Positions 1,774 to 19,363 of a DNA stretch of 64,000 nt are shown in pieces. Position numbers and translations under genes: made by a program. Source of the DNA: Candidatus Aenigmatarchaeota archaeon. Its GTDB lineage: Archaea; Aenigmatarchaeota; Aenigmatarchaeia; GW2011-AR5. How positions within the stretch are numbered: position 1 is the stretch's first letter; each line of letters starts with the position of its first letter. The notes under the pieces are model-generated. The model worked only from the letters and a program-made list of their open reading frames with translations, was not told the DNA's origin and did not search any database. The stretch is from positions 171,632 to 235,631 of the forward strand of contig JACPDL010000003.1 in assembly GCA_016184005.1 (NCBI GenBank), written 5' to 3'.

Positions 1774-3288
1774 TTACTTGAAGAACTTTCTGAGTGCGGG
1801 ATGCATGTCTTCTGCGTAGCGCATCGCGATCTGTTCGTACATGTTGTGGATGATCGATACTGTCAGCAGGATGCCTGTTCCGGTGCCTACGGCGCTCGTG
1901 AAATCAGCAATGGCTGCGATAAGGCCGATTATGAGGCCGCTGAGTACTGTAAGTATTGGTATGTATCTGTCAAGCACCTGCCCCACGATGCGCGGGTCGC
2001 GGCGGAAGCCGGGCACTGACATGCCCATGTCATTTATCTGCTCGGCAACGGCACGGGAGTCCATGCCGCTTGTTGACACCCAGAAAATCGAAAATACTAC
2101 AGAACCAACAACGAACGCAGTCAGGTAGACAAGGGCGTTAAGCGACGCTGCCGCTGTAGGCAGCCCGATGGAAAGGTTTGTTACAAGAACTGCAAGAACA
2201 AACCCCACGATAATGGAAGCAAGCAGAACCTTAAGCGCATTCTGGTATTTCAGGTAGAATGCAAGGAAGCCTGCCGCGAACACAACAGCAAGAAGTATCA
2301 TGAAGAAAATCTGCGTCTGCAGGTCACCCGGCGGGTTCAGGAACGAAATAATTCCGCTTACGGGTAAGCCGTTCGTATCTATGCAGCCCAGGAAGCCGCA
2401 ACGCAACCCGCTTTCGGTAACCCTTGAAGAGAGTGTTGCCATGAACTGGAGGTTTGCTATCAGCGCGCCGACAAGTATGACGGGTATGTTGCTTGTGTAC
2501 ATCAGGTTCAGCGGCCATCTTCTGGAATAACCCCTGACCGACGCGAACGCTATTGGTATCTCAACGCGTATTGCCTGGATATACACAACAATGAGAAACA
2601 CGATTATTGTCGCAATGATAGGCAGCAGCGCAATGAAAGCCTGGAAGACCTCGCCCAATGTCATAAATGTGAAAAACTGCAGCAACAAACCGGCAGGAAC
2701 AGTCTGGCCTTCGGGAGTAATCGGGTTGAAAATCCTGACAAATATCTGCTTTGATACGCCGGCTGCTATGAACAGCGATACGCCCGAGCCTATGCCCCAT
2801 TTCGACACTATCTCGTCCATGTAAAGTACAAGCACGCCGCCAAACGCAATCTGTGCTACTAATAAAAGGAACATATCAGGCGACGCAGGCGGCAATGCAC
2901 CAAAAGCTACGAAAGCGTAAGCTTCAAAGATCGAAAAGAATATTGCAAGGAGTTTTTGCGTTCCCTGGAATCTCTTTTTGCCCTCCTTGGATTTTGTGTC
3001 CCATGACAGGATCTTTGAACCAACCAGCAACTGCAATATTATAGACGATGTTACTATCGGGCCTATGCTGAGCGTCATCAAAGTGCCAAGCGATGCGCCC
3101 AGTATGAGCTCAAAGAACTGCAGGCGCGGCAGCGCTCCTGCTGAAAGCCCGTAAAGCGTTATCTGCCCCAGGAGAAGGAATATCAGAAGTACAAGCGCAG
3201 TCCACTTGAGGCGGGTGATGAAATTGAGATGTGTCTTAGGCTCCTCAATTCCGGGCAGGCCTGAAACAAACTTGTCGTAAAAGGACAT
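1774..3288 (-). CDS. secY: Preprotein translocase subunit SecY/Sec61-alpha
   Basis: 504 aa, 10 TM helices, conserved SecY motifs; sits at the distal end of the r-protein cluster as in archaea. Confidence 0.9.
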   Translation of the reverse strand: MSFYDKFVSGLPGIEEPKTHLNFITRLKWTALVLLIFLLLGQITLYGLSAGALPRLQFFELILGASLGTLMTLSIGPIVTSSIILQLLVGSKILSWDTKSKEGKKRFQGTQKLLAIFFSIFEAYAFVAFGALPPASPDMFLLLVAQIAFGGVLVLYMDEIVSKWGIGSGVSLFIAAGVSKQIFVRIFNPITPEGQTVPAGLLLQFFTFMTLGEVFQAFIALLPIIATIIVFLIVVYIQAIRVEIPIAFASVRGYSRRWPLNLMYTSNIPVILVGALIANLQFMATLSSRVTESGLRCGFLGCIDTNGLPVSGIISFLNPPGDLQTQIFFMILLAVVFAAGFLAFYLKYQNALKVLLASIIVGFVLAVLVTNLSIGLPTAAASLNALVYLTAFVVGSVVFSIFWVSTSGMDSRAVAEQINDMGMSVPGFRRDPRIVGQVLDRYIPILTVLSGLIIGLIAAIADFTSAVGTGTGILLTVSIIHNMYEQIAMRYAEDMHPALRKFFK

Positions 3289-3301
3289 TTTGTACCCTCA
3301 T

Positions 3302-3562
3302 CTAACATTTAGGAATAAGAGGTATAACGTAATCAATATCTCTTGTTTGTATTGGTACCACATCTCGCGGTTTTTGATTTTCATCTAAACAATGATAAAA
3401 CTCGACAAATGCTGGAGCCACTTCTACAACTCTTCCTAAATATCCAGCTATAGTCTCAAACTTTCCCTCTTTGTTTCTATGTCTAACTTCTACTAATCCA
3501 GCCGTCTGCACTACTCTTTGAATGTCTCTAAGTCTGCTCAATTCCATATTTACACTGACCAT
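3302..3562 (-). CDS. Hypothetical 86-aa protein inserted between L15 and SecY
   Basis: Intact ORF in the operon orientation, tight spacing; no recognisable family. Confidence 0.35.
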   Translation of the reverse strand: MVSVNMELSRLRDIQRVVQTAGLVEVRHRNKEGKFETIAGYLGRVVEVAPAFVEFYHCLDENQKPRDVVPIQTRDIDYVIPLIPKC

Positions 3563-3564
3563 TT

Positions 3565-3969
3565 CTATTCTACTATGACTCCGCCGGCCTGCTCTATCTT
3601 TTCTTTGGCCTTCTTTGAACAGCTGGGAATTCTCACTTTGACGGCAACGTTGATGGAACCTTTTGAAAGAAGTTTCTGGTAACCCATTGAAGACAGGTCA
3701 ATAACTTCCGCATGTTCCTGCACTGAAAGAATCTTTTCCACGTCACCGACATTGATTATTTTCATGGATTTCTTGTTGTGCCTTACAAAACCTTTGTATC
3801 CGTAGTGCTCCGGCTCGTAGTTTACAATATACGAATACTTGTGCTTGTGCGAGCCGCCGTAACCGCGCCCGCCCTTGCTGCCTTTTCCGCGGTGTTTCTT
3901 CTTCGAGCCCCAGCCGTGGGTATGCGTACCTCTCTGTCTTGTATCCTTTTTCCTGAAGCGTAGTGTCAT
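3565..3969 (-). CDS. rpl15: 50S ribosomal protein L15 (uL15)
   Basis: Gly/Lys/Arg-rich N-terminus (GSKGGRGYGGSHKHK), position before SecY. Confidence 0.8.
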   Translation of the reverse strand: MTLRFRKKDTRQRGTHTHGWGSKKKHRGKGSKGGRGYGGSHKHKYSYIVNYEPEHYGYKGFVRHNKKSMKIINVGDVEKILSVQEHAEVIDLSSMGYQKLLSKGSINVAVKVRIPSCSKKAKEKIEQAGGVIVE

Positions 3970-4337
3970 TCTTTAACCCTCATCTTTGCATATCTCTTCC
4001 ATTCCATGAGCCTCAGGCCGCCGTTATATCGCTCCTCCAGCAGTCTTGCTGTCGCTTCCGGCATCTTCAGGTCCTTCCGGCCCAGGCCGCCCTTTGCGCC
4101 TTTCTTCCTTGCAAACCTGTATACCTCTCTCGGATTCAGGGCAGAAAAATGATGGGTTCTTTCATCAACAAAAGATTCAGTCGGTTTCTTCTCGTATCTC
4201 AGGACGAGTTTCTCATGACCGTTCATGTCAACAAAGACAGTCCTTTTTTCATCTGCTCGTGTTTCCGTGGTGAAATAACCGAGAAAGCCAAAATCACTGG
4301 CAGGCTTCAGGAAAACCTTGTACTCGGGCATTTTCAC
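3966..4337 (-). CDS. Hypothetical 123-aa protein inserted between L30 and L15
   Basis: ORF overlapping neighbours by 4 bp on both sides (translational coupling); no family recognised. Confidence 0.4.
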   Translation of the reverse strand: MKMPEYKVFLKPASDFGFLGYFTTETRADEKRTVFVDMNGHEKLVLRYEKKPTESFVDERTHHFSALNPREVYRFARKKGAKGGLGRKDLKMPEATARLLEERYNGGLRLMEWKRYAKMRVKE

Positions 4338-4669
4338 AGCATCCTCTTTATGAGATCATTTATGTTGTTTCCGCGATAACCGAGATCGCCTTTTGGCCAG
4401 CGTTTCTTCAGTGTCTTGAACCCGCCCCTTGGCGGAGCAAGCCGGTACACGTTGCCTTTACCTTTTTCTTTCAGCATCTCAAGCAGATCCCCGCTTGCTT
4501 CTCCCCACGTAACGTAGTCTTCTGATTTCTTTATCATGCCCACAATTTCCGATGATTTTGGCACGAGTGCGAGCGCGTGTTTCGTATGCAGGCCAAGCAT
4601 GCGCATCGTGCGCTCTACGTCTTCCCTTACGCCAATCCTTCCACGCACGCGCAAAACAGCCAATTCCAT
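4334..4669 (-). CDS. rpl30: 50S ribosomal protein L30 (uL30)
   Basis: LAVLRVRGRIGV...TMRMLGL motif of uL30; follows S5. Confidence 0.8.
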   Translation of the reverse strand: MELAVLRVRGRIGVREDVERTMRMLGLHTKHALALVPKSSEIVGMIKKSEDYVTWGEASGDLLEMLKEKGKGNVYRLAPPRGGFKTLKKRWPKGDLGYRGNNINDLIKRML

Positions 4670-5386
4670 CTATCGCACCTCTTCATTTATTTCTTCAGGC
4701 TCTTCAGCAGCTTCAACGACACGCTTGGCTTCATTCTCGCTGTGAATCTTCATCTTGTTTATCTTCTTGAACGCATCAAAAACTGCAAGAGTATAATTCA
4801 TCCGGGTTCGCGGATCGCCGAAAGTCTTTGACCATATGTCCCTGATGCCAGCAAGACGCATTATCTTCTTGCCTTCATCATAAACTGCAAGGCCTATTCC
4901 TTTTGGCGCAGGCATCAGCGTAACCTTAACGGATCCCGACTTGCCCTGGATCTCTACAGGTATTGAATGCTTTCCGCCGCAGGAGCACTCCCATGAGCCG
5001 CAGCCGCGCTTTACTGGTATGATATTGAGCTTCGCAGCTTCGGATGCTTTCTCTGTTGCAACCCTGTGTTCCTGGGCTTCTGATTTTCCAACGCCAAAAT
5101 ATCCATCTCCGTTGCCAACCACCACCAGGGCTGAAATCTTGAACCGTCTTCCTGACCTGTGCATTCTTGCTGTTCTCCTTGTAGATGTTCTTTTTATGCC
5201 GCCGCCTTTTCCCGGTGTTCCGCCTATGAAAATTATATCGCTTTGCAGGTTTGGCAGCAGCTTGTCAACGATCTGCGGCTCTTTTATCTTCCTGCCGCTT
5301 GCAAAAACCTCGTCAAGCGTGGCTACCTTGCCATCAAGCACCAGTTTTCCAAGCTCTGTTTTGGGTTTCCAGTTTTCAGTTGACAT
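4670..5386 (-). CDS. rps5: 30S ribosomal protein S5 (uS5)
   Basis: dsRBD plus S5 C-terminal domain motifs (GRRFKISALVVVGNGDGYFGVGKSEA). Confidence 0.9.
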   Translation of the reverse strand: MSTENWKPKTELGKLVLDGKVATLDEVFASGRKIKEPQIVDKLLPNLQSDIIFIGGTPGKGGGIKRTSTRRTARMHRSGRRFKISALVVVGNGDGYFGVGKSEAQEHRVATEKASEAAKLNIIPVKRGCGSWECSCGGKHSIPVEIQGKSGSVKVTLMPAPKGIGLAVYDEGKKIMRLAGIRDIWSKTFGDPRTRMNYTLAVFDAFKKINKMKIHSENEAKRVVEAAEEPEEINEEVR

Positions 5387-5390
5387 GAAT

Positions 5391-5966
5391 TCACCTCAAG
5401 ACCTCAGATATCTTTTCTTTTGTCTGATTGAAAATGCCCGGCAGATCTTCCGGATCGCTGCCGGCCTTGATATACGCAGCAAAATGCTTTCTGAATTTGT
5501 CCTGGCTTTCTGATTTCATCTTTTTTGCATATTCGGCAATATGCATGCCTTTCGTCCTGTTGTCATCAGGAAGTATTTCTTCAGCAACATTTATGCCAAC
5601 ACCGGCGTCTTTGCAGCCTTTCACTGCGGCAAATATGCGTGAGCCTTTCACTGCCCTGTTCAATCCAATATCAACGTTACATTCCCTGACGCCAGCTTTG
5701 AGGCAGAGTTTTCCAAAGAGGAAACCAGTCAGGTAAGCTGCCGGGATGTTTCCAAGATGTCCTTTCCAGCCGTATTTCAAAAGCATCTTGGAGAAAACCT
5801 CGACGGATGTCTTGTCGCTTGAACCCATGAACTCGACTGCCTGTATTCTTACACCATTCAGAGACCTTCTGATAACTACCCTGTGCTTGCTTGATTTCAG
5901 CAGGGCTAAACGGTTCTTATAATCCGTTTTCAGTTCTCTCCTGCGTTTTAATGCTAACATAGTCAT
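5391..5966 (-). CDS. rpl18: 50S ribosomal protein L18 (uL18)
   Basis: LKRRRE...RLALLKSSKH N-terminus and order after L19e. Confidence 0.85.
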   Translation of the reverse strand: MTMLALKRRRELKTDYKNRLALLKSSKHRVVIRRSLNGVRIQAVEFMGSSDKTSVEVFSKMLLKYGWKGHLGNIPAAYLTGFLFGKLCLKAGVRECNVDIGLNRAVKGSRIFAAVKGCKDAGVGINVAEEILPDDNRTKGMHIAEYAKKMKSESQDKFRKHFAAYIKAGSDPEDLPGIFNQTKEKISEVLR

Positions 5967-6020
5967 CGTCCCGACTTTTTCTGCAAATCTTTCATCATCA
6001 TTCTATCACAGTTCTTTTTT

Positions 6021-6125
6021 CTTTTGGGGTTTATCTGCAAAAGCCTGAAAGGCTTTTGAGACACCAGAGAAGCTTTGCTTCTCTGAGTGCAAAGACCTTT
6101 TCTTTCCTAAAGAAAAGGTCTTTGT
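6021..6125. repeat. Family-B palindromic repeat element (three consecutive hairpins); copy 1
   Basis: gcaaaagcctgaaaggcttttg, agagaagctttgcttctct and aaagaccttttctttcctaaagaaaaggtcttt hairpins; near-identical inverted copy at 29001-29090. Confidence 0.7.
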
Positions 6126-6433
6126 CACGCAATCTTGCCGTGCTTGTAAGGCCTCGTCTTGTTGTACTCCATCTTCTGAAGCACTTCCTTTTCAATGTCA
6201 ATCCCGAAGCCTTCTGCGAGGTCTATTGTCCTGATTATGATGTCCGCCAGCTCCTCAGCCATCTTTCCTTTCTCCTGTTTCCTGTACGCTTCACAGCACT
6301 CCCCTGCCTCGCTGACTATAAGCATCAGGGCCTCGAGGAAATTCCTGTCGCCGCCCTCCCAGAAACCCTTTTCCCTTGCTGTGCTGTGAATTTCCCTTGC
6401 CATTTCCTTCATGGTTTTTGTATTGTTATTCAT
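6125..6433 (-). CDS. MazG-like nucleoside triphosphate pyrophosphohydrolase, inserted between L19e and L18
   Basis: EALMLIVSEAGE...EELADIIIRTIDLA acidic helix motifs typical of the MazG/NTP-PPase fold. Confidence 0.55.
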   Translation of the reverse strand: MNNNTKTMKEMAREIHSTAREKGFWEGGDRNFLEALMLIVSEAGECCEAYRKQEKGKMAEELADIIIRTIDLAEGFGIDIEKEVLQKMEYNKTRPYKHGKIA

Positions 6434-6436
6434 TTT

Positions 6437-6889
6437 TCACAACTCATTCTTCTTCAGCATGTTGTTTCGTTCAATATAAGTCATAAGGTGCGCACGGCTT
6501 CTGAAGAAACCGCTCTTGGATTTCATGTAAAGTTTCCTGTACGTGATTTTCTCTATCTTTTGCTCGCTGCGAAGCTGCCTAAGCTGGCTTCTTATGGCAC
6601 GTATGGTCCGCATCCAGTGCCGCTTGCTTTCCCCGGCGTGATGGCCTTTCCTTGACCCCGGGCCACGCCTTCGTCCCTTCCTTTTCTGCAGCGCTATCTT
6701 CTTCTTCCTCGCGTTGCTGAGGCCTTGTTTTGGAAGCGCTTCTATCAGGCCGTCTTTGACCAGCCTTCTTACGTCCTGGGCAGTTATTGCCTCCTCTATG
6801 TCATGTATCCTTTCTGGATCAAGCCAGACGCGGGATTTACCGCATTTCAGCAATCTTGCTGCAATAGTTTTCTGCGTTTTCAATGTCAT
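6437..6889 (-). CDS. rpl19e: 50S ribosomal protein L19e
   Basis: LKTQKTIAARLLKCGKSRVWLDP N-terminus characteristic of eL19. Confidence 0.85.
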   Translation of the reverse strand: MTLKTQKTIAARLLKCGKSRVWLDPERIHDIEEAITAQDVRRLVKDGLIEALPKQGLSNARKKKIALQKRKGRRRGPGSRKGHHAGESKRHWMRTIRAIRSQLRQLRSEQKIEKITYRKLYMKSKSGFFRSRAHLMTYIERNNMLKKNEL

Positions 6890-6953
6890 AACAAATCCCT
6901 TTTCTTTAAGAAAGAAAAGGTCTTTGTATGTCCCAAAAGAAACTTACAAAAAC
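6890..6953. repeat. Family-A start-codon-abutting palindromic element, copy upstream of L19e
   Basis: Reverse complement reads ttttgtaagtttcttttgggacatacaaagaccttttctttcttaaagaaaagggatttgtt immediately followed by the ATG of L19e. Confidence 0.7.
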
Positions 6954-7156
6954 CATTTCTTTACTCTTTCTTTTCAATTTCATCTCCACTTAAGTCCAGA
7001 ATTTTGTCTGGGGTTCTTTCTGCCTGCCTAGTACTGACACATAATATTTGTTGAAAGCGATGTCGCACCTGTTGCAATGATATGTTTCCTTCGAGAGCTG
7101 TTTACTGGCGTCTCCGCAAAACGGACATTTCCCATCGCCAAATGCAACAAACATTT

Positions 7157-7558
7157 TCACACCTGTTTTTCTTCCTTCTTTGCAGATTCTGCAATCTTTT
7201 TCAATACATTCTCCCTTCTGAGCAGGCTTTTCACCCGCCTCATGTTCAGGACAGTAAAGCCCCTTTCACTGGCTGCTTTGTATATCTCAACGGCCTTCTT
7301 CGAGCCAACTGAGCCTGAAATAAATATGCCTGAATTCTCCGGAAGACTTCCCAGCTGCGAAGCGGTGCGAATGTTGAAAGCCCTGAAACCTCTGATCATG
7401 TGCATCTTTGTCTTTTCTGTTCCGTAACCGACTGAAGGCTTTTGACCGGAGCCGCCCTTGCCTAGGCGGAGTTTGCTCTGCCTGCCTCTAGGCTTTCGCC
7501 ATTTAATTCCAAGTTTTTTATAACGGAAATAATCCTGTTGCTTGAAATTCTTGCTCAT
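7157..7558 (-). CDS. rpl32e: 50S ribosomal protein L32e
   Basis: KKLGIKWRKPRGRQSKLR signature of eL32. Confidence 0.8.
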   Translation of the reverse strand: MSKNFKQQDYFRYKKLGIKWRKPRGRQSKLRLGKGGSGQKPSVGYGTEKTKMHMIRGFRAFNIRTASQLGSLPENSGIFISGSVGSKKAVEIYKAASERGFTVLNMRRVKSLLRRENVLKKIAESAKKEEKQV

Positions 7559-7938
7559 ACACCAGCACCCTCCAGCAACCTAATAAGTCTTTCTGATCGA
7601 CCTTCAAAATATATCTTATCAAAAAACGCATCAAATCCGGCTGGTTTCCATTTATCTTCTCGGACATAACTCTGACTCATCAGAACCATATAACGCCTTG
7701 GCAGCGATCCTTCTTTTTCAAGTCTTCTAATTTCTGAACCAATTTGCAATCCGGTTTCATCTTTGTGGTCAATGAACCGAAGGTCGCATAAGACTGCATC
7801 AGGATTATCTCTCAAATATGCTGCGATTGCTTGGTCTCTAGTGGTTGCTGTTGTTGTCTCATAGCCGGCCTTCTCCAATGGAACTGTACATCTAACTAAC
7901 CAATGGTCTTTGTCATCAGCTACTAAGACTTTTTTCAT
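7555..7938 (-). CDS. Stand-alone CheY-like response-regulator receiver domain, inserted between L6 and L32e
   Basis: MKKVLVADD start, conserved Asp (LCDLRF), 127 aa, single domain. Confidence 0.6.
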   Translation of the reverse strand: MKKVLVADDKDHWLVRCTVPLEKAGYETTTATTRDQAIAAYLRDNPDAVLCDLRFIDHKDETGLQIGSEIRRLEKEGSLPRRYMVLMSQSYVREDKWKPAGFDAFFDKIYFEGRSERLIRLLEGAGV

Positions 7939-7941
7939 ACC

Positions 7942-8523
7942 TTATCCCTTTATTCTCTCGCCTGTTTCCAGATACTTGCCAGTGAGATAGACCCCATCCT
8001 GGAATATGCGCCTGTCCCGTTTCGTGATCTTGCATGCTTGCTCTATATTTGCAGCGGTCTGGCCAACATCCTCAATGCTCACGCCAACAATTTCAAGCTC
8101 ATCTTTCCCGACACTGACTTCAGCATTACCGATTATTCTTGCGGTTCGCGCGCCTTTCTCGCCTACGAAATTTCTTATCTGCACTTCCCTGTCCTTCACG
8201 CTTATTGTAATCGGGAAGTGCGTATAGAAAACCTTCATTTTATACTTGTAACCGCTTGTCGCGCCGCCGATCATGTTGCGGGCATGTGCGGCTATGGTGC
8301 CGCAAAGGCTTCTTATTTTCTTTTCATTGGAATCCGAGACTATTGATATTTCATTGCCGGATCTTTCAATGGAAATTCTTTTTGAAAATCTTGGATCATT
8401 GAAATCCTTGCTTATCTGGCCCCTTGGTCCTTTCATGATGATTCTCTTGCCGTCTATCTGGACATCCAGGTTATCAGGAACCATTATTCTCTTTTCTATT
8501 TTCTTGTTGTCCATGATCATCAT
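7942..8523 (-). CDS. rpl6: 50S ribosomal protein L6 (uL6)
   Basis: Two uL6 repeats; the track ORF extends to 8655 but overlaps S8, so the start is placed at the internal MIMDNKK. Confidence 0.85.
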   Translation of the reverse strand: MMIMDNKKIEKRIMVPDNLDVQIDGKRIIMKGPRGQISKDFNDPRFSKRISIERSGNEISIVSDSNEKKIRSLCGTIAAHARNMIGGATSGYKYKMKVFYTHFPITISVKDREVQIRNFVGEKGARTARIIGNAEVSVGKDELEIVGVSIEDVGQTAANIEQACKITKRDRRIFQDGVYLTGKYLETGERIKG

Positions 8524-8525
8524 CT

Positions 8526-8912
8526 TCAATATACGTAAGCAAGCAGCCTGCCGCCCAGGCCGGCTTTGACAGCTTCCTTCTGCGTCATTACGCCCTTCGA
8601 TGTCGATATTATCAGAAGCCCGAAGTCCTTTGCCGGAAGATATCTTGTCTCCCATTTCTCGTATTCATTCCTCTTTACAGGCAACCGCGGCTTTACAGCC
8701 CTCGACTTGTTTATTTTGCCAACCAGCTGTATCTCGAGTCTTCCTGATTTTCCGTCATCTATGAACTCGAATTTGCCTATGTAAAGCTCTTTCTGAAGGA
8801 CCTTGAGGACGTCCTTGACCAGGGATGACGCAGGCACTACGCATGCCCTTTTCCCTGTCTTTTCAGCGTTAGATATCACGTGCAAAACGTCAACAAGCAA
8901 GTCATGTCTCAT
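8526..8912 (-). CDS. rps8: 30S ribosomal protein S8 (uS8)
   Basis: MRHDLLVDVLHVISNAEKTGK uS8 N-terminus. Confidence 0.9.
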   Translation of the reverse strand: MRHDLLVDVLHVISNAEKTGKRACVVPASSLVKDVLKVLQKELYIGKFEFIDDGKSGRLEIQLVGKINKSRAVKPRLPVKRNEYEKWETRYLPAKDFGLLIISTSKGVMTQKEAVKAGLGGRLLAYVY

Positions 8913-8917
8913 TCTTT

Positions 8918-9079: not shown

Positions 9080-9083
9080 AGTA

Positions 9084-10281: not shown

Positions 10282-10287
10282 ATATCA

Positions 10288-11534: not shown

Positions 11535-11544
11535 ACTATCACCA

Positions 11545-11820
11545 TTACCATTTGCTGAATTTCTTTTTGATGCGGTCTTCAGGCCTCGAGACGATATATT
11601 TTCCTTCTATGTCAACCATGTGCGAATCGAGTTTCAGCCTGAACACGCAACCATCCTTCTGGATGCGTTTTTCTTTTTTGCCTGATTCTATTATCAAAGT
11701 CTTCATCGTTTCGTCAACAATCTTTCCTTTTGTCCCTATCTGGCTTTTGTTTTTTGACGCGACAACTTCGCATTCCATGCCTATGAGTTCATGCCTGAGT
11801 ATATTGTTGGGAATCCTCAT
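11545..11820 (-). CDS. RNase P protein component 1 (Rpp29/Pop4)
   Basis: ELIGMECEVVASKNKSQIGTKGKIVDET pattern and canonical archaeal position between SUI1 and S17. Confidence 0.7.
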   Translation of the reverse strand: MRIPNNILRHELIGMECEVVASKNKSQIGTKGKIVDETMKTLIIESGKKEKRIQKDGCVFRLKLDSHMVDIEGKYIVSRPEDRIKKKFSKW

Positions 11821-11831
11821 ACTTCAGGCAC

Positions 11832-12134
11832 CTAGCTGATCTCAATTATATCTGCCGGGAATCCTTCCTTCACGAGTATCGCCTTTGCTCTTTGCCTGTG
11901 GTCTCCCTGTATCTCGAGCTCGCCGTTTTTATACGTGCCGCCACACGCAAGCCTGGACTTCAAGGTTTTCAAAAGATCCCTGATGTTGATCTTTGACGAA
12001 TCTATTCCGCGTATGACAGTTGTATGCTTGCCGTACCGCTTCTGGACTAGCCTGATTGTTATTCTTTGCGCTTCCTTTGCTATAGTCTCGCATATGCACA
12101 ATTCCTTTGGAAGACCACACTTCTGGCAATTCAC
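11832..12134 (-). CDS. Translation initiation factor SUI1 (aSUI1/eIF1 homolog)
   Basis: Cys-rich N-terminus plus RITIRLVQKRYGKHTTVIRGI...ACGGT SUI1 fold motifs. Confidence 0.8.
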   Translation of the reverse strand: MNCQKCGLPKELCICETIAKEAQRITIRLVQKRYGKHTTVIRGIDSSKINIRDLLKTLKSRLACGGTYKNGELEIQGDHRQRAKAILVKEGFPADIIEIS

Positions 12135-12340
12135 TTCTTCAACACCCCTCCTATTTCAGCCTTTACAGTCAGTATCCTTGCTATTGTTTTTTTTATGTGC
12201 CCGATTCTGCCAGGATTCTTTACAGTCCCTATCTCGCTTGCGGCCAGTTCTTTAGCAAGTTCCAGCCGTAACTCCTGCAGTTTCGTTTCAATATCCTTCT
12301 CGCTCATCTGGCGAATCTTTTTTGTCTTTAGTTCGGCCAT
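12131..12340 (-). CDS. rpl29: 50S ribosomal protein L29 (uL29)
   Basis: ELRQMSEKDIETKLQELRLEL coiled-coil uL29 motif. Confidence 0.8.
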   Translation of the reverse strand: MAELKTKKIRQMSEKDIETKLQELRLELAKELAASEIGTVKNPGRIGHIKKTIARILTVKAEIGGVLKK

Positions 12341-12342
12341 TC

Positions 12343-12975
12343 TTACTCGCCTGCCTTTGCGGCTTCTGGAGCAGCGTCAATGTTCTTTTCTTCAATCTTC
12401 CTCATCGTGATGAGCTCGGGCTGATTTATCATTATTTTCACCGTTATGCCGATGCTTCCGAGCTTGGGCGATGCCACAGCAAAGCCGGTCATAACATCTT
12501 TCAGTGCCGGGTCTCCGGCTTTCTTCAAGTAACCGGCACTGAATCTCTGCGTCCTGCTTCTCTGTCCGGAAACCTTGCCTGAAAATACTATCTCGCAACC
12601 TATGGCACCCGATTCCATTATTCTCTGCAGATACTGGTTTCCCAGCCGCTTGTAGTTCACTCCCGATTCTATTGCGGCTGTAATTGCCTGCGCGACAACT
12701 GCCGGATTCATGTCCGGATCCATTATTTTCTGGACATCTATTTGCGGGTTTTCTATCTTGAACTTCTGTTTGAGCAATTCTGCGGTTTCCCTTATCTTTT
12801 CCCCGCCCGTGCCGATAACCAGTCCCGGCGTTGTCGTATGAATAACAATACGCGTTACTATCGGAGTGTGCTGTATTTCTATCTCGCCGCACTTTGCCTG
12901 AGTAAACTGACTCCTGATAAACTCCTGCAGATTGACCAGCTCCTTCGCTTTCTGTATGAAAATTCTTTCCTTCAT
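12343..12975 (-). CDS. rps3: 30S ribosomal protein S3 (uS3)
   Basis: KH domain plus uS3 C-terminal domain. Confidence 0.9.
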   Translation of the reverse strand: MKERIFIQKAKELVNLQEFIRSQFTQAKCGEIEIQHTPIVTRIVIHTTTPGLVIGTGGEKIRETAELLKQKFKIENPQIDVQKIMDPDMNPAVVAQAITAAIESGVNYKRLGNQYLQRIMESGAIGCEIVFSGKVSGQRSRTQRFSAGYLKKAGDPALKDVMTGFAVASPKLGSIGITVKIMINQPELITMRKIEEKNIDAAPEAAKAGE

Positions 12976-13034
12976 AACAAATCCCTTTTCTTGAAAGAAA
13001 AGGTCTTTGTAAACCCCAAAAGAACTTACAAAAC
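12976..13034. repeat. Family-A start-codon-abutting palindromic element, copy in the L22-S3 intergenic region
   Basis: Reverse complement ...ttttgtaagttcttttggggtttacaaagaccttttctttcaagaaaagggatttgtt-ATG(S3). Confidence 0.7.
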
Positions 13035-13052
13035 CTTTTCTTTAGTTAATTA

Positions 13053-13673
13053 TTATTGATCCTCCTTGGCTTCTTCCTTAGCTGGTTGTTTCTTTGCCGC
13101 AGCCTTTCTTTTGTCGGCGCTTGTCGGGATGTCTTTGCCGACTATCTCCTCGACCTGCTTCTCTAATATCTCTGCCTGGTCCCTGATTCTTTCCGTTTGT
13201 TCCTGCATCTCCCGGATTTCCTTCGGCTTTTCTGTTGTTTCTTCCTTTTTCTCCATCTGCTTCTTTATGGCTTCTTTCTTTACTACGTCGTGCCGCACCT
13301 TTTCCAGCAGCATTATCTCTACGTTCGCTGACTTCATTCTGTATCCGAAGTTCTGCTTCCTTCTCCTTCTTCTCAGGTTTGTTCCCTTGTGGGCCGATGC
13401 ATGGACCATCAGGTGGCCTGCGTCAAGCCCAAGCGCGTCTGCGTTTTTTTCACAGGAGTTAAGCAGCATGAGCATTTCCTTTGCAGTCTTTGTATAGTAT
13501 TTCCCGTCAAGATTCCTGCGCTCTTCTGCAAGATCCTCGAGCAGCCTCTTTGCTCTTGTGAGCGGCTTTTTCTTTATCACCCTGCACAAGAATGCAGCGT
13601 GCTTTGCAGATATCCTGAGGTTTCTGCCGTAAGCCTTCGCGTGTTTCTCTTTTGGAACAAACGTATAATGCAT
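13053..13673 (-). CDS. rpl22: 50S ribosomal protein L22 (uL22) with K/E-rich C-terminal extension
   Basis: HAKAYGRNLRISAKHAAFLCRVIKKK uL22 N-terminus. Confidence 0.8.
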   Translation of the reverse strand: MHYTFVPKEKHAKAYGRNLRISAKHAAFLCRVIKKKPLTRAKRLLEDLAEERRNLDGKYYTKTAKEMLMLLNSCEKNADALGLDAGHLMVHASAHKGTNLRRRRRKQNFGYRMKSANVEIMLLEKVRHDVVKKEAIKKQMEKKEETTEKPKEIREMQEQTERIRDQAEILEKQVEEIVGKDIPTSADKRKAAAKKQPAKEEAKEDQ

Positions 13674-13682
13674 ATGAACACC

Positions 13683-14072
13683 TTATTTCAGCGGAACGAA
13701 CTTGGATGAGCGTGTTGCCCCCAGCCCGGGCGCCGAGTGTTTTACCCTTTTTCTGGTGAGCGCAAATTCACCCGTATAATGGCCGACCATGCTTTCTTCT
13801 ATGATTATCGGTATGAACTCCTTGCCGTTGTAGATGCCGACCTTGGATCCGATCATCTCAGGCAGTATTACCATGTCCCTGACATGCGTGCGGACAAGCT
13901 TGTCTTTCCCTTTTGAGCGCCTTATGTCCTCAAGCAGCTCCTTTTGCTGCTTATTGAGGCCTTTCTTCAGCGAGCGCCTTTGCCTTGAAGGAAGAAGCAT
14001 CGAAAAGTCTTCGAGCGTCATTGCCTGAAGCTCTTCAGCCGCTTTTCCCCTGTATGAAAATTTCTTGGCCAT
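13683..14072 (-). CDS. rps19: 30S ribosomal protein S19 (uS19)
   Basis: VGIYNGKEFIPIIIEESMVGHYTGEFALTRK uS19 signature. Confidence 0.9.
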   Translation of the reverse strand: MAKKFSYRGKAAEELQAMTLEDFSMLLPSRQRRSLKKGLNKQQKELLEDIRRSKGKDKLVRTHVRDMVILPEMIGSKVGIYNGKEFIPIIIEESMVGHYTGEFALTRKRVKHSAPGLGATRSSKFVPLK

Positions 14073-14074
14073 GA

Positions 14075-14638
14075 TTAACTCCTCTGGAAGACTAATACAA
14101 ACTTCATTGCTTCAGGGTGATAGTAAGTTTTTAGTTCTGATGGAATATCCATATGAAATTCTTCTTTAAAATTTAAACCACAATTTCCTGCAAGCTCAAC
14201 AAATGTTTCTGTATCTTCTGGCAGAGAAGCCCAAGAAAATACATAGATGCCACTTGAATTCAGCATATGGGAAAAGCGTGAAAGTCTTCGTCTTACAATG
14301 TCTTTAGCAGGACCTAGCTGATCATGTGCTTCATAATATGGAATTTCACTTTCATCTACAAGGCTTCCAATAGTACAAACCATGTCCATCGCATATGGCG
14401 GCTGGAAATCATCATGTCCTGAAACTGAAAAACTTGCATTTCCAATTCCGTGCCCTTTCTTGTAGCCTTCTGCTTTCGCTATTTGATCTGGAGATATATC
14501 ATAACCATGCACTGTTGAATACGGATTTTGTTTTGCTAGATGTAAAGCTAAAACACCAGAACCGCATCCAGCATCGAGTATTAAATTTCTATTTTTTGCT
14601 AGGTCTCTTACCACTCTTGCTGATGATATTGTTGTCAT
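14075..14638 (-). CDS. Class I SAM-dependent methyltransferase (~188 aa), inserted between L2 and S19
   Basis: ILDAGCGSGVLALHLA glycine-rich motif I. The track ORF extends to 15007 in another frame over L2, so it was trimmed to Met MTTISSARV. Confidence 0.6.
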   Translation of the reverse strand: MTTISSARVVRDLAKNRNLILDAGCGSGVLALHLAKQNPYSTVHGYDISPDQIAKAEGYKKGHGIGNASFSVSGHDDFQPPYAMDMVCTIGSLVDESEIPYYEAHDQLGPAKDIVRRRLSRFSHMLNSSGIYVFSWASLPEDTETFVELAGNCGLNFKEEFHMDIPSELKTYYHPEAMKFVLVFQRS

Positions 14639-14643
14639 AACTA

Positions 14644-15357
14644 TCACTTCTTCCTCCTTCTCTTGCCGACGCGCTTGGGCGAGACAGATCCTACTTTCTT
14701 TCCCGGCGGCATGTCGCGCGAAACGGTCTTGTGCTTCCCCGGTTTTGTCTGGCCGCCGAACGGATGATCGACTGCGTTCTTTGCCACGCCTCTTGTCTTC
14801 GGCCAATACCTGTTGGACGCAGTCATTGCGTAGAACTTGGTTCCGGCTTTCATGAAAGGCTTCTCGATGCGCCCTGATGCCGCAACACTGCCCAAAGCCG
14901 CCTTGCAGCGCGATGAAAGCGTTTTCTTCTCGTTCGACGGTAAAAGCACGACACATCTCCCTGAGTCCTTCGAAAGCACCGTTCCAAACGTCCCGGAAGT
15001 CCTGCATAATTTCCCGCCGTCCCCCGGGTGGAGCTCAATATCATAGACCCTGCTTCCTTCCGGTATCCTGCCCAGTTCAACAATGCTTCCTTCTGTCGGT
15101 TCTTCCAGGCTGATCCGCTGGCCGACAAACATGCCGTCGCATGCCAAATGAAGGAACCTGCTGCCTGAAAATCCAACAACAGCAACGGGAGAAAATCTCC
15201 CCGGCGCATCGACTATGTCCACTACGGTTCCGGATTTTTCGCCGGCGGGAAGATAAGTATAACTAACCTTTCCAAGATACCTGTGGCCAGGTGCACGATA
15301 CCTCGGACTTCCTCTTCCTCTTCTCTGCTGCCTGAGATTTTTACCCATGATTATCAC
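14644..15357 (-). CDS. rpl2: 50S ribosomal protein L2 (uL2)
   Basis: uL2 motifs (GRNxxGRITxRHRGGGHK-like, GxxxAxxxxG) and expected position. Confidence 0.9.
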   Translation of the reverse strand: MIIMGKNLRQQRRGRGSPRYRAPGHRYLGKVSYTYLPAGEKSGTVVDIVDAPGRFSPVAVVGFSGSRFLHLACDGMFVGQRISLEEPTEGSIVELGRIPEGSRVYDIELHPGDGGKLCRTSGTFGTVLSKDSGRCVVLLPSNEKKTLSSRCKAALGSVAASGRIEKPFMKAGTKFYAMTASNRYWPKTRGVAKNAVDHPFGGQTKPGKHKTVSRDMPPGKKVGSVSPKRVGKRRRKK

Positions 15358-15638
15358 CGAACCGACAGTCTTGATTGCCAGTTTAATTCTTTTTCGTATT
15401 TCTCTAGCTGTCCTGCTTTTTTTTCATCCCCATCGAAACTAACCTTCAGTCTCCCTCCAGTTTTAGTGATTGCAGTGGCACCATCGTAGAATGAAGCTCT
15501 ATAGCTTCTGCCACAAAAATCATCCCTAACGTCTGCCGGTATATCTGTGTGTTTCTCGCCATAAATGATTCTCAATACCCTGAGAAAAGCCAAACCAGTA
15601 TGTGGAACATCTATCTCTGTGTGCGTCATGTCAACCAA
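15354..15638 (-). CDS. Hypothetical 94-aa protein (insertion between L23 and L2)
   Basis: Intact ORF in operon orientation, 4-bp overlap with L2 start; no family. Confidence 0.3.
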   Translation of the reverse strand: MVDMTHTEIDVPHTGLAFLRVLRIIYGEKHTDIPADVRDDFCGRSYRASFYDGATAITKTGGRLKVSFDGDEKKAGQLEKYEKELNWQSRLSVR

Positions 15639-15891
15639 CCAATATTTTCCTTAAAGCCTGATACCTCGCTTCTGCCGTCAATCCGTCGTCTATCATGGCT
15701 CCTTGTGCAAGTTCTACATCAACAGGAACACCGAATTCATCAACCAGCATATTTGCCACTGATGGAATCTGTCTTTGCAGCACTTCATCTTTCGGCCTCT
15801 CGTATACAGTTATATGTGGTCTGCCGTCTTCATCCCTTGCAATTCTTACCCTGTCAAGATCCTCTTCAGTGAGATAGTTTGTCTGAATCAT
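15631..15891 (-). CDS. Hypothetical 86-aa protein (insertion between L23 and L2)
   Basis: Intact ORF, 8-bp overlap with downstream ORF; acidic; no family. Confidence 0.3.
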   Translation of the reverse strand: MIQTNYLTEEDLDRVRIARDEDGRPHITVYERPKDEVLQRQIPSVANMLVDEFGVPVDVELAQGAMIDDGLTAEARYQALRKILVG

Positions 15892-15895
15892 TTCA

Positions 15896-16120
15896 TCACT
15901 TTGCCAAGTATTTTTTTAGCAGATCTGCTACCCTATCACTGAAAGCTTCTATTCTGACCTTGTCCCCGTCTTTTTTGGCTGTTGCGCCCGGTATTGCAAC
16001 TGGTTGGCCGCCATCCAGCTGCATCCTGTACCAAGCCCTATCACTATCAAACTCAGAATAGGTAAGACTGAGCAGCCTGTCAACTGTTCTTCTTTCATAC
16101 GGAAGTTCTATTGTTGGCAT
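15896..16120 (-). CDS. Hypothetical 74-aa protein (insertion between L23 and L2)
   Basis: Intact ORF, tight spacing; no family. Confidence 0.3.
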   Translation of the reverse strand: MPTIELPYERRTVDRLLSLTYSEFDSDRAWYRMQLDGGQPVAIPGATAKKDGDKVRIEAFSDRVADLLKKYLAK

Positions 16121-16130
16121 TTCATCACCG

Positions 16131-16574
16131 TCAGATTATTCCCAGCCGGATTGCGATTTCTCCGGCCTGTCCGGGCTCCCTGAATTTCACGAAGGCCTTT
16201 TTCCTGCCAGACTCATCAATCATTGTATTCACGTGCTTCACGCTGCTCTGGAAGGCCTGCTCTATTGCACGTTTGATTTCTTCCTTGTCGCTGCGCCTGT
16301 TAACAATAAACACAAGCTTGTTCTGCGCCTCAATCATCTGCACTGCTTTTTCCGTCATAAGCACAAAACGAAGGGTTCCAAAGGGATCCATCGCACTCTT
16401 TTCTTTCGCGGCCGGCGCGGCGGCGATTTGTTTCTCTTTCTTCGAAGGCTTTGGCTCTGCCTTCTGCTGCTTGGCCGGGGCCTTTGGCTCTTTTCTTTTT
16501 TCTATCTTCTTGAGTATTTCTTCTGCCTCTTTTTTCACGTCTTTTTTTTCAGGCTTCTCTGCTGCAGGCGTCAT
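16131..16574 (-). CDS. rpl23: 50S ribosomal protein L23 (uL23) with Lys/Ala/Pro-rich N-terminal extension
   Basis: C-terminal uL23 core (LRFVLMTEKA...); low-complexity KEPKAPAKQ N-terminus. Confidence 0.8.
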   Translation of the reverse strand: MTPAAEKPEKKDVKKEAEEILKKIEKRKEPKAPAKQQKAEPKPSKKEKQIAAAPAAKEKSAMDPFGTLRFVLMTEKAVQMIEAQNKLVFIVNRRSDKEEIKRAIEQAFQSSVKHVNTMIDESGRKKAFVKFREPGQAGEIAIRLGII

Positions 16575-17365
16575 GCTGTTTCACCATATATCTCGTCAAT
16601 CTTCTGGATAGCGGGCTTTGTTATGATCATCAGGCGGCCTGCATGGGTTCCGGGAGCCAGCGCTTCTACCGTCATGGAGCCTGCAGTTGAAACGTCCACG
16701 CCTGTTATGTTTCTCGCAGCCCTGGAAAGGCTGCATTCCTTGGAAACGATTACCAGGGGCCCTTTCTTCTTCCTGTACTGCCTGCCGCGCATTTTGCCTT
16801 TGCCTGCACGGACTTTTTTCACTGCGCACCTTTCGAGTTCGTTCGGTATGAGCTTTGCAAGTATTTTCAGCACGTCTTTTGTCTTCCCTATGTCTTCCAT
16901 GCCGCCGGTAAAAATTATCGGCGATATCTGCGTTTTGTGTCCCCTTCCCGTCACAATATCAAGGCTTGCAGCAGCCGCCAGCGCTGACCTGATAGCAAGC
17001 GACCTTTCCTTGTTGTTGACCTTCTCAAGCCATATCTTTTCAGCCTTCGGCGGGTGCGCCTGCCTGCCTTTGACCGCTTGCGGCGCAAAGCGCGCAGTAA
17101 AATGAAGGCTGCCCACTTTGCCGTGTATGCGGGGCATTCTGGACATCTCCTTGTTCATCATGGCCCATCTGTACTTTCTTTTTCCGTGATAATGGGCGCT
17201 GGTACGCTTTCCAGAAAGCGGATCCGCGCCATAAGGCTGCCTTTTTGCGCTGCGTTCAGATAATACTGCACGTTTAATCACGTCAGGCCTGTACGGGGTG
17301 CTGAATAAAGGCGGCAGCTGTATATCCTCAACTTCATTGCACTCGGAATCATAAACTTTTGTCAT
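16571..17365 (-). CDS. rpl4: 50S ribosomal protein L4 (uL4)
   Basis: uL4 fold motifs; 4-bp overlap with L23. Confidence 0.9.
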   Translation of the reverse strand: MTKVYDSECNEVEDIQLPPLFSTPYRPDVIKRAVLSERSAKRQPYGADPLSGKRTSAHYHGKRKYRWAMMNKEMSRMPRIHGKVGSLHFTARFAPQAVKGRQAHPPKAEKIWLEKVNNKERSLAIRSALAAAASLDIVTGRGHKTQISPIIFTGGMEDIGKTKDVLKILAKLIPNELERCAVKKVRAGKGKMRGRQYRKKKGPLVIVSKECSLSRAARNITGVDVSTAGSMTVEALAPGTHAGRLMIITKPAIQKIDEIYGETA

Positions 17366-17367
17366 AA

Positions 17368-17748
17368 CTATCTGACCGCTTTTCTGCTGCCTTTATTGCC
17401 CTTTCTTCTTGGTATCTTGGGAGAAGCTTCGCTTCTCCGAGATTCCAAAAAGCTGCGCTTTTTGAGAATGTTGAATTCTGTCATCATCATGCCTCTTATA
17501 AAATTTGGATCAAAAGAAATTATATCAGCAAACTTATCTGCTATTTTATCTGCACTCAAATTCATCAGCCAATACTGCGTTGCCAAATATTCTGGCAAAG
17601 ATTGTGCAAGCCCATCATCCCTGACTTGCATTTCTAATGCGGCATATGTGCCTATATATCTCGATCTCTTAATTCCAGGATCATCTAGCGTTCTTGTTCC
17701 AACTATTATTTCCTCGAAATCTATGGCGCCTGTTGTCTGGTATGTCAT
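17368..17748 (-). CDS. Hypothetical 126-aa protein between L3 and L4; its 3' end overlaps a MITE-like repeat
   Basis: Intact ORF in operon orientation; C-terminal codons run into repeat copy M3 (17416-17468). Confidence 0.35.
   Translation of the reverse strand: MTYQTTGAIDFEEIIVGTRTLDDPGIKRSRYIGTYAALEMQVRDDGLAQSLPEYLATQYWLMNLSADKIADKFADIISFDPNFIRGMMMTEFNILKKRSFLESRRSEASPKIPRRKGNKGSRKAVR
17416..17468. repeat. Family-M MITE-like element, truncated copy (hairpins 1 and 4 only)
   Basis: cttgggagaagcttcgcttctccgagat tccaaaaagctgcgctttttgagaa matches the ends of the copies at 36970-37076 and 20469-20575. Confidence 0.7.
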
Positions 17749-17750
17749 AA

Positions 17751-18719
17751 TTATTTCCCCTGCTTGCTTTCAACAGAAACATAACGTATGTCAGCAGGCA
17801 CAACCTTCTGCGTGCGCACTGATTTCCTGATTCTTACAAGCCTTTTCCTCGGCCCGGGAACGCTGCCTTCAATGAGCAGGAAAGTCTTCAGGTCCCCGTA
17901 GCCGACGAAACCGCCTGCAGGAGTCACTTTCTTGCTGTCATCGCCGATCATCAGGACCCTCTTGCTGAATTCGGTGCGCGTGAAGAATCCGTATTGCCCT
18001 GCGGCCGGCACGCGCCAGTCGACTTTCCTCGGGACAGTAGAGCCTATGCTGCCGACGTGGCGGTGCATCTGCTTGTCTTTCCTGAACTGTATCCTTATTC
18101 CGAAACGCTTTACAGGACCGGTGAAACCGCTGCCCTTTGTCACAGCACTTGCATCAATATACTCGCCAATTCTGAAGACATCAACGGCCTTGATCTCCTT
18201 CCCAAGCACGCTGCTGGCATATTCGAGCTTCTTGTTCAAGTCGCCGCCAACGGCAATCTCGAAGATTTCCGGCTTGAACTTCCTCATCCCGCTCTTCAAA
18301 GGCTGCGTGCAGACAACCAGCCGCACATCATCCACGCCGCTTGTATCGCAGTCCTTGCTGCCCGGATTCGCGGCTCCAGTCTTGCGCTTGATGTCTATCT
18401 CCTTCGGGACCTTTGCCCATTTTTCACCGGCTGTTGAAAGGCCTGAAGGCGTCTTTTTGTAGTAGCGCACAGCCGCAACAAAAAGCGCGGGCGCGTCAAG
18501 TATTGTCACGGGAGAAAATATTATTTTGCCGTATGCAGGGGATTTAGGATTGTTGTCTATGTGCTGCACGTGCGTCATCCCTGCCTTCCAGCCTGCAAAA
18601 CCAAGCGGCTTTGCGTCATTTGATGGCTGCCAATGGGATACCCTTGGGTAAATACGCTTTGCCCTTTTTCTGGGCCAGAACTGTAGCGATCCGTGTCTTG
18701 GTCTTGTTCTCTTCGGCAT
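17751..18719 (-). CDS. rpl3: 50S ribosomal protein L3 (uL3)
   Basis: uL3 motifs (FxxGxxVDVxGxxKGKGFxG); first gene of the cluster. Confidence 0.9.
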   Translation of the reverse strand: MPKRTRPRHGSLQFWPRKRAKRIYPRVSHWQPSNDAKPLGFAGWKAGMTHVQHIDNNPKSPAYGKIIFSPVTILDAPALFVAAVRYYKKTPSGLSTAGEKWAKVPKEIDIKRKTGAANPGSKDCDTSGVDDVRLVVCTQPLKSGMRKFKPEIFEIAVGGDLNKKLEYASSVLGKEIKAVDVFRIGEYIDASAVTKGSGFTGPVKRFGIRIQFRKDKQMHRHVGSIGSTVPRKVDWRVPAAGQYGFFTRTEFSKRVLMIGDDSKKVTPAGGFVGYGDLKTFLLIEGSVPGPRKRLVRIRKSVRTQKVVPADIRYVSVESKQGK

Positions 18720-19347: not shown

Positions 19348-19363
19348 AATTTTTCGGCCATGA

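Follow-up and report, generated by a model that had tools for sequence, protein, structure and literature searches.

Published accounts call the archaeal ribosomal superoperon the largest conserved gene array, with a few housekeeping genes embedded in it (PMC3353972, PMC4390880). Its known embedded genes are SecY, adenylate kinase, SUI1/aIF1 and Rpp29, with enolase and Rpo6 beside S2; these are old genes of wide conservation, and most have links to translation, secretion or nucleotide metabolism. We analysed a 64-kb stretch of DNA, here called the window, from a metagenome-assembled genome (MAG) of Candidatus Aenigmarchaeota (DPANN), a small-genome groundwater archaeon. Its L3-SecY cluster of ribosomal-protein genes has the same backbone and follows the same principle of embedded non-ribosomal genes, SUI1, Rpp29 and SecY being present here too. 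Unlike the described superoperon, however, it carries ten extra genes in eight slots, seven of them without a detectable family and most of them variable between strains, and adenylate kinase is missing after SecY.

Other described systems resemble the inserted genes singly or in their behaviour. The MazG-like insert shares with the MazG/all-alpha nucleoside triphosphate (NTP) pyrophosphohydrolase superfamily (PF12643, PF03819) its profile scores, the EAGE...EELAD helices, a length of about 100 amino acids (aa) and its matches in the PDB; the literature searched gives no indication that members of that superfamily keep a conserved place within a ribosomal-protein operon. The receiver insert has the acidic pair, phospho-acceptor Asp, Ser/Thr and Lys of stand-alone CheY-like regulators, but it lies in a ribosomal operon, its Pfam score is barely at the threshold, and the same slot in other lineages has degenerate or truncated versions without the acceptor Asp. 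Like phage morons and integron cassettes, the inserts are small, compositionally distinct, strain-variable and placed precisely between co-oriented genes, in slots that are reused by unrelated cassettes. Morons and cassettes are expressed from a resident transcription unit, as the inserts presumably are. In contrast to both, the recipient is a cellular housekeeping operon, and the inserts showed neither an integrase nor attC-like sites nor promoter/terminator pairs of their own; the likeness is an analogy of behaviour, not membership.

We favour, with a probability of about 0.6, operon hitchhiking with a layered history in a DPANN lineage, in which most inserts are passengers and not dedicated ribosome factors. 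The literature that could be searched, a limited library whose silence is weak evidence, contained no description of such an insert-crowded L3-SecY cluster.

Ten additional genes in a canonical cluster

A Pfam scan of every open reading frame (ORF) in the chain identified a canonical archaeal cluster on the minus strand, running from 18719 to 1774 in the order L3-L4-L23-L2-S19-L22-S3-L29-SUI1-Rpp29-S17-L14-L24-S4e-L5-S14-S8-L6-L32e-L19e-L18-S5-L30-L15-SecY. The archaeal/eukaryotic-specific S4e, L32e and L19e are all present, and the backbone order is shared with the related loci (designated L001-L037). On top of SUI1 and Rpp29, ten extra intact genes in the same orientation occupy eight slots (Table 1). 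A first-pass annotation of the sequence had reported a canonical cluster with at least eight extra genes, which the Pfam scan confirmed; the nine ORFs that it named are all where it placed them, and the zinc-ribbon gene X10 had been overlooked. It had also described the junctions as usually overlapping by 4 bp. This holds for 7 of the 20 insert junctions; two more overlap by 8 bp, and the rest are gaps, nine of 2-13 nt and one each of 100 nt (after X10) and 158 nt (after the MazG-like gene). The reported absence of adenylate kinase after SecY was borne out: the downstream ORFs are Pfam-less or, on the other strand, a PNPOx gene. Adenylate kinase directly after SecY is common, not universal, in archaeal clusters; the relatives likewise lack it there and have SepF or other genes.

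Table 1. Positions of the cluster ends, embedded genes, palindromic elements and upstream ORFans in the window (slots are named by the genes on either side)
Feature	Position	Strand	Length	Slot or location	Remarks
L3	17751-18719	minus			Pfam
X1	17368-17748	minus	126 aa	L3/L4	
X2	15896-16120	minus	74 aa	L23/L2, first of three	
X3	15631-15891	minus	86 aa	L23/L2, second of three	acidic
X4	15354-15638	minus	91 aa from ATG 15629; 94 aa from TTG 15638	L23/L2, third	
Methyltransferase (MTase)	14075-14638	minus	187 aa	L2/S19	class I, S-adenosylmethionine-dependent
SUI1	11832-12134	minus			Pfam SUI1 1e-21; canonical non-ribosomal member; in all relatives
RNase P Rpp29	11545-11820	minus			Pfam RNase_P-MRP_p29 6e-26; canonical non-ribosomal member; in all relatives
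Receiver	7555-7938	minus	127 aa	L6/L32e	CheY-like, stand-alone
X10	6990-7154	minus	54 aa	L32e/L19e	C4 zinc ribbon
MazG-like gene	6125-6433	minus	102 aa	L19e/L18	all-alpha NTP pyrophosphohydrolase
X8	3966-4331	minus	121 aa; 123 aa from GTG 4337	L30/L15	
X9	3302-3562	minus	86 aa	L15/SecY	
SecY	1774-3288	minus			Pfam
Three consecutive perfect hairpins	~6020-6125	minus		after MazG	first is the 36-nt palindromic element; minimum free energy -49.5 kcal/mol, z -7.3
Palindromic element, second copy	6891-6927	minus		100-nt gap upstream of L19e	
Palindromic element, third copy	12975-13010	minus		77-nt gap upstream of S3	
Three co-oriented ORFans	18865-20081	minus	156 aa, 77 aa ('EIGYPIGVD' family), 160 aa	upstream of L3	no Pfam match

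A 310-aa ORF (14075-15007) considered for the MTase was rejected as an artefact of the longest-ORF rule; it overlaps L2 in another frame, and GenBank annotates 187 aa. Several ribosomal proteins carry low-complexity extensions: L23 (16131-16574; 147 aa in total) has a 60-aa K/A/P/E-rich N-terminal extension, L22 (13053-13673; 206 aa in total) an 80-aa K/E-rich C-terminal tail, and S5 (4670-5386) an acidic C-terminal tail. Such extensions are common to the relatives (in L014, L23 has 148 aa and L22 190 aa).

All ten inserts are intact in independent assemblies, with up to 9-14 contigs each, and are syntenic in NCBI, JGI, ENA and Logan, with identical segments in several Logan assemblies. Contigs identical to the window's occur in runs such as SRR12113419/432. 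GenBank annotates all ten as coding sequences (locus tags HYU56_02160-02320), with the unknown ORFs and the receiver labelled 'hypothetical protein'. The ratio of non-synonymous to synonymous substitution (dN/dS) was calculated by the Nei-Gojobori method against L001, an aquifer-derived Aenigmatarchaeota 'AR5' MAG that is the nearest genome in GTDB and shares about 97% identity in its ribosomal proteins, with further comparisons against L011-L013. Against L001 it was 0.13 for X1, 0.53 for X2 (computed from few substitutions), 0.21 for X3, 0.23 for the receiver, 0.09 for X10, 0.08 for MazG and 0.34 for X8, and 0.02-0.35 for the ribosomal-protein genes. The values against L011-L013 were similar (X4, 0.27), with X1 at 0.13-0.24 and MazG at 0.02-0.08 over the comparisons, and dN/dS was below 1 wherever measurable among the inserts. 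Many inserts, like the ribosomal-protein genes, have a GGTGA/GTGAT motif, the complement of the 16S 3' end, 3-7 nt before the start; in X2 a GGTGAT Shine-Dalgarno-like motif lies 3 nt upstream. AlphaFold2 gave confident models for two insert families, X8 (pLDDT 91, pTM 0.84) and X9 (pLDDT 79).

The ten inserts are thus real genes under purifying selection, beyond chance. The opposite reading, that the small ORFs are chance frames, mis-assemblies or decaying spacers, could draw on the X2 ratio and on a few ORFs of the relatives that are probably spurious, namely a 52-aa ORF of L001 overlapping the palindromic element described below and overlapping-frame ORFs of L027 and L033. It is essentially excluded by the intact copies in independent assemblies, the same-slot homologs or conserved motifs of every insert, the two confidently folding families and the GenBank annotation. 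The first-pass annotation had named absence of conservation and of coding signal as the outcome that would make the small ORFs spurious; relatives share them, and their dN/dS is purifying.

Same-slot homologs and strain-level turnover

We anchored 30-odd related loci on their ribosomal proteins and read the contents of each slot; percentages given for inserts are amino-acid identities to the window protein. This synteny comparison, which the first-pass annotation had proposed, was informative in that it set same-slot homologs beside strain-level turnover, and the dense invasion by intact co-oriented genes proved unusual over the roughly 30 loci, and stronger than had been claimed. X1-X4, X8 and X9 gave no useful match in Pfam, PHROGs, NCBIfam or PADLOC, and X10 matched Pfam and related profiles weakly, in a generic zinc-ribbon manner. 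An exhaustive phmmer search of 1.84 billion representative proteins returned 25 homologous clusters for these seven Pfam-less ORFs (one each for X1 and X2, two each for X3 and X4, seven for X8, three for X9 and nine for X10). Wherever the contig of a homolog could be read, the homolog occupied the corresponding slot of a related cluster.

L001 keeps X1, X2, X3, the receiver, X10, MazG and X8 at 81-96%. X4 is absent, and a 41% paralog of X3 (X3b) stands in its place; a 71-aa ORF replaces the MTase, and an unrelated 76-aa helical ORF replaces X9. In L012/L013 (ribosomal proteins 91-94%), X1 is retained at 62%, a 53% homolog of X4 (P0008 in L012) is the sole occupant of L23/L2, and the receiver (74%), X10, MazG with a second MazG-like paralog, X8 (42%) and X9 (about 41-43%; P0020 of L013, 43%, in L15/SecY) are present. 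In L002/L011 (87%), X1 stands at 54%, a 115-aa X4-like ORF (28% in L011) is accompanied by a 21-aa remnant of X3, the MTase is broken by a 275-nt internal deletion with loss of frame, and the receiver is absent. X10, MazG, X8 (46%) and a 76-aa ORF remain, and a 69-aa ORF has been added between L14 and L24.

At about 60% ribosomal-protein identity (L014-L016), MazG is still found in L19e/L18 of clusters that are otherwise nearly canonical, and L015 carries a ribulose-phosphate 3-epimerase (Rpe, 12021-12653) in L30/L15. X10 occupies L32e/L19e in about 20 further contigs, which gives about 30 loci altogether, down to 51% ribosomal-protein identity; the L6/L32e slot of distant relatives holds receiver homologs (30-34%) or degenerate receiver-like ORFs. 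Other Aenigmarchaeota (L019, L025-L027, L033) have roughly 5-10 unrelated ORFans of their own in other slots, some of the shortest probably spurious, and a Pacearchaeota cluster (L003) has zero inserts. Two paralog pairs, X3/X3b and MazG/MazG2, were found among the inserts.

Base composition divides the inserts in a similar way. GC content at third codon positions (GC3) is 0.46-0.62 in the ribosomal-protein genes, with a median of 0.52 in other window genes and 0.23-0.29 in the window's Pfam-less ORFs. MazG (0.66), X8 (0.54) and X10 (0.49) have native-looking values; X1 (0.37), X2 (0.41), X3 (0.37), X4 (0.38), the MTase (0.22), the receiver (0.31) and X9 (0.23) are low and resemble the foreign or ORFan genes of the genome. 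GC3 class agrees with phylogenetic depth for each insert except the receiver, which is old by position and low in GC3. The old residents are MazG, X10, X8 and the receiver, whose slots are fixed across deep divergence; X1-X4, X9 and the MTase form a young strain-variable set that is swapped, duplicated or decaying among genomes with 87-97% identical ribosomal proteins. X8, X1 and X10 share the basic character of ribosomal proteins (isoelectric points 9.9, 9.6 and 9.0), and X3, X4, X9, the MTase, the receiver and MazG are acidic or neutral. Elsewhere in the window, a low-GC island at 30012-31777 (plus strand), with a further one at 22224-23855 (minus strand), holds large Pfam-less ORFs (GC 0.29-0.31, GC3 0.23-0.29) whose composition equals that of the young inserts.

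The MTase scored above cut-off with Methyltransf_31/25/12 (Methyltransf_31, 49.2 bits against 27) and has a Rossmann-type GxGxG motif (DAGCGSG); on these profiles it is a generic class I enzyme. Identification as PrmA, PrmC or an rRNA methyltransferase was rejected, the matches being partial (NCBIfam equivalogs 20-34 bits against cut-offs of 100-560; PrmA, 56 residues of a 296-position profile). A word-indexed search returned only four homologs. Two of them, P0148 and P0147 (50% and 48%), are flanked by atpA and atpB in an A-type ATP synthase operon (L041 4055-4537; L042 167-697); the family has therefore reached two distinct core operons. In L042, atpB and atpD are further separated by a PF1765-like ORF and an ORF on the opposite strand. 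The protein matches the methyltransferase region of PADLOC mad2 (6.5e-13), but no mad2 partner genes or system-like arrangement were found, and searching viral contigs and phage records for the MTase gave nothing useful.

The MazG-like insert matched PF12643 (33.4 bits, cut-off 27), PF03819 MazG (28.1 bits, cut-off 22) and the phage pyrophosphatase family phrog_3301 (6e-28); its best solved relatives are Sulfolobus SSO3215 (PDB 1vmg, 4.7e-7) and DCTPP1/RS21-C6. Relatives on viral contigs were found, as expected for the family. The acidic metal-binding helices (SEAGE…EELAD) are kept, with E42, E45, E60, E61 and D64 invariant or nearly so in the family alignment. It holds the same slot at 63-91% in L002 and L013-L016, and at 63-74% where ribosomal proteins are about 60% identical. 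Its most likely role would be nucleotide-pool house-cleaning in step with ribosome synthesis. Synonymous sites of the gene are saturated against L013 (1901-2206) and L002 (6054-6359), with a proportion of synonymous differences of 0.73 and dS >2.5, yet 91% of the protein's residues are identical, and dS is 0.26-0.37 in the neighbouring L19e and L18. Since the gene is saturated and its flanks are not, this suggests allele exchange between lineages or far weaker codon constraint than in the neighbours. A different 104-aa family (MKLVRDKIPE...EELADI) occupies L5/S14 in L019, L025, L026, L027 and L030, all of which are without MazG in L19e/L18. It has no Pfam or NCBIfam match; PDB 2q73/2q5z were hit at E 0.013-0.019, and hhalign gave E 0.0026 over one helix. 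It is possibly a third MazG-like lineage, which would make it an independent recruitment of an NTP pyrophosphatase.

The receiver is a borderline match to Response_reg (PF00072; 30.5 bits against 30.2, 70 of 111 profile positions). In a MAFFT alignment with E. coli CheY, its D8-D9, D52, S88 and K108 align with D12-D13, D57, T87 and K109. These signature residues are kept in L001, L013 and L020 and lost in L033, L025 and L027. Same-slot identity was 83% in L001, 74% in L013 and 30-34% in L020/L021/L033, and no histidine kinase was found among the ORFs scanned in the window.

X1, which has no PDB match either, always lies in L3/L4 (84% in L001, 62% in L012, 54% in L011) and has a conserved core, GLAQSLPEYLA.QYWL, with a tail PRRKG.KGS; the window copy contains an 18-aa insertion. 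X2 is confined to the window and L001 lineages (81%), and X3 is 90% identical in L001. A distant paralogy of X2 and X4 (with the 115-aa ORF of L011) was not accepted (hhalign E 0.007, probability 6%). The X10 family has an invariant CPxC...CxxC and ends in KFWN/T. Its profile weakly matches the eL43 zinc ribbon in the PDB (E 6e-4, 28 aa of the knuckle region only). Neither a reduced eL43 (L37Ae) nor a Lar-like protein was accepted as its identity: for the former the basic N-terminal half and a Pfam L37ae match are missing, and for both the similarity is of the generic zinc-ribbon kind. The X8 family, always in L30/L15, has an invariant GA.GG.G..D..M motif; it is 33-46% identical where the flanking genes are 75-94% identical. 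Its AlphaFold2 model has a β4-α3-β-α arrangement and no fold match in the PDB or BFVD (best E 0.14 and 0.06, TM-score <0.35). The X9 model is a helix with a five-strand barrel, nearest to WYL domains (TM-score 0.59-0.65, Foldseek probability 1.0, but weak E of 0.02-0.3 and no sequence-profile match) and near bL19 and Sm proteins as well. L001, L002 and L010 have an unrelated 76-77-aa helical ORF in its slot.

Palindromic elements, possible traces of movement and other window genes

The cluster has four longer intergenic gaps, and a 36-nt palindromic element (CAAAGACCTTTTCTTT...AAAGAAAAGGTCTTTG) lies in three of them, with 10 matches against 0.1 expected and a diverged pair at 60282-60332. It could be a terminator, a processing signal or a small mobile palindrome; an Rfam scan of positions 1-22000 recognised no RNA family. 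Copies stand on both sides of the L19e-MazG pair, and in L001 one copy lies between L19e and MazG instead. MazG may form a two-gene unit with L19e, because of this bracketing and the three hairpins that follow MazG.

Among the three ORFans upstream of L3, the 156-aa and 160-aa proteins are paralogs (264-nt repeat, 75% identical). Together with a 686-aa PKD-domain protein they form a co-oriented set (18865-22141, minus strand), of which variants occur in L011 and L001. Directly after the 77-aa ORF, at 19346-19367 (minus strand), we found a 22-nt copy of the S19 start (TTAATCATGGCCGAAAAATTTT, encoding MAEKF*), 20/22 identical to 14057-14078. In L001 a paralog of the 77-aa ORF (6187-6420) occupies L2/S19, and S19 there is short of about 20 N-terminal codons. 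We infer that the S19-start copy is probably the footprint of a small gene moved with its flanking DNA by recombination at junction microhomology. The insert boundaries fall on short conserved stop/Shine-Dalgarno/start junctions. No integrase or transposase was present among the Pfam hits, and a repeat search found no attC, terminal inverted repeats or target-site duplications bracketing individual inserts.

Two further genes of the window were recorded. A 400-aa protein (26972-28174, minus strand) combines a sigma-54-interaction AAA+ domain (1.4e-58), an AAA lid and a Fis-type HTH_8 without a receiver domain, a bacterial enhancer-binding-protein architecture in an archaeon whose ribosomal operon encodes a stand-alone receiver. 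Archaea should lack sigma-54. The release factor aRF1 (42600-45227, plus strand; eRF1 domains 1-3) is interrupted by an intein that carries a LAGLIDADG homing endonuclease and an HTH_3 domain, 875 aa in total.

Proposed operon hitchhiking and its alternatives

Under the hitchhiking reading, unrelated genes would have been inserted repeatedly, exactly at gene junctions of the ribosomal-protein array. Because the inserts keep operon orientation and tight spacing, and many have a GGTGA-type ribosome-binding site of their own, the ribosomal-protein promoters most likely drive their transcription, and their translation most likely depends on coupling or re-initiation. The cluster would then act as a constitutive expression platform and as a 'safe harbour' or parking place for passengers, since sloppy deletions would damage essential neighbours. 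Near-identical strains would swap, duplicate, truncate or lose the young passengers, probably via recombination at short conserved junction sequences. That most inserts are passengers is suggested by the MTase family in an ATP synthase operon, the MTase pseudogene, the strain-level replacements and the L015 epimerase. Several points weigh against this picture. Co-transcription and translation are putative, read from the geometry of the genes, and four longer gaps with strong hairpins imply that the cluster is not one transcript. The arrival of the cassettes finds no explanation in insertion machinery or flanking repeats, neither of which was found. At least two and possibly three distinct MazG-like genes have joined the cluster, and MazG, X10, X8 and the receiver may have kept their positions for so long because they are functionally tied to translation, not as neutral hitchhikers. 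The 'unusual' density, finally, is judged from about 30 loci and the textbook canonical order.

The first-pass annotation had proposed that the inserts are ribosome-associated factors or regulators that tune translation to nucleotide or signal status, to which may be added that a stable subset could be lineage-specific ribosomal or ribosome-bound proteins. Taken over all inserts this is unlikely, and it is plausible only for the fixed, basic subset. The slots of the old residents, held over deep divergence, speak for it, as do the basic character of X8, X1 and X10, the ribosomal-protein-like GC3 of X8, X10 and MazG, the weak match of X10 to eL43, the Sm/SH3-like barrel of the X9 model, a fold common to bL19 and Sm proteins, and the repeated recruitment of MazG-like genes. 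For most inserts, however, the proposal did not hold: the MTase, X2-X4 and X9 come and go among strains with nearly identical ribosomal proteins, unrelated ORFs substitute for them, the MTase has decayed in a relative and its homologs sit in the ATP synthase operon, and L015 has an epimerase in the L30/L15 slot. X8 evolves far faster than core ribosomal proteins, several of the inserts are acidic or neutral, and X10 lacks the basic half of eL43. The proposal may still hold for MazG, X10, X8, the receiver and X1, whose slots are kept across much deeper divergence. It is doubtful that X8, X10 and perhaps X1 are unrecognised DPANN ribosomal proteins or tightly bound factors and that MazG couples nucleotide-pool quality to ribosome output. 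A further reading, improbable for the inserts as a whole and possible for the variable subset, takes them as fast-evolving, horizontally moving conflict cassettes (defence, anti-defence or host interaction of an episymbiont) lodged in essential operons against loss. It would account for strain-level presence and absence, for X8 and X9 at 41-46% where flanks are 87-95% identical, and for the foreign-like GC3 of the young set; the mad2 likeness of the MTase (part of the MADS defence system), the phage-family match and viral relatives of MazG, its synonymous saturation against L013 between unsaturated neighbours and the WYL-like barrel of X9, a domain of defence regulators, also fit it. The PADLOC, PHROG and fold matches concern generic folds, however, and neither a recognised defence architecture nor a toxin-antitoxin pair, integrase, transposase or flanking repeat was found; the MTase is not on viral contigs, and dN/dS stays below 1.

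Few prokaryotic gene arrays are as conserved as the L3-SecY cluster, which serves as a yardstick for phylogeny and binning because it is assumed to be stable; here is a whole lineage in which unrelated genes are tolerated, and continue to build up, at many junctions of the array. For the variable inserts, annotation through guilt by association with ribosomal operons would mislead, and the positionally fixed MazG-like enzyme, zinc ribbon, X8 and receiver are priority targets. The lineage offers a natural system for studying how new genes come to be expressed in very small genomes that have few regulators, how strong selection on operon integrity is, and whether some of the DPANN 'dark matter' proteins are ribosome-linked.

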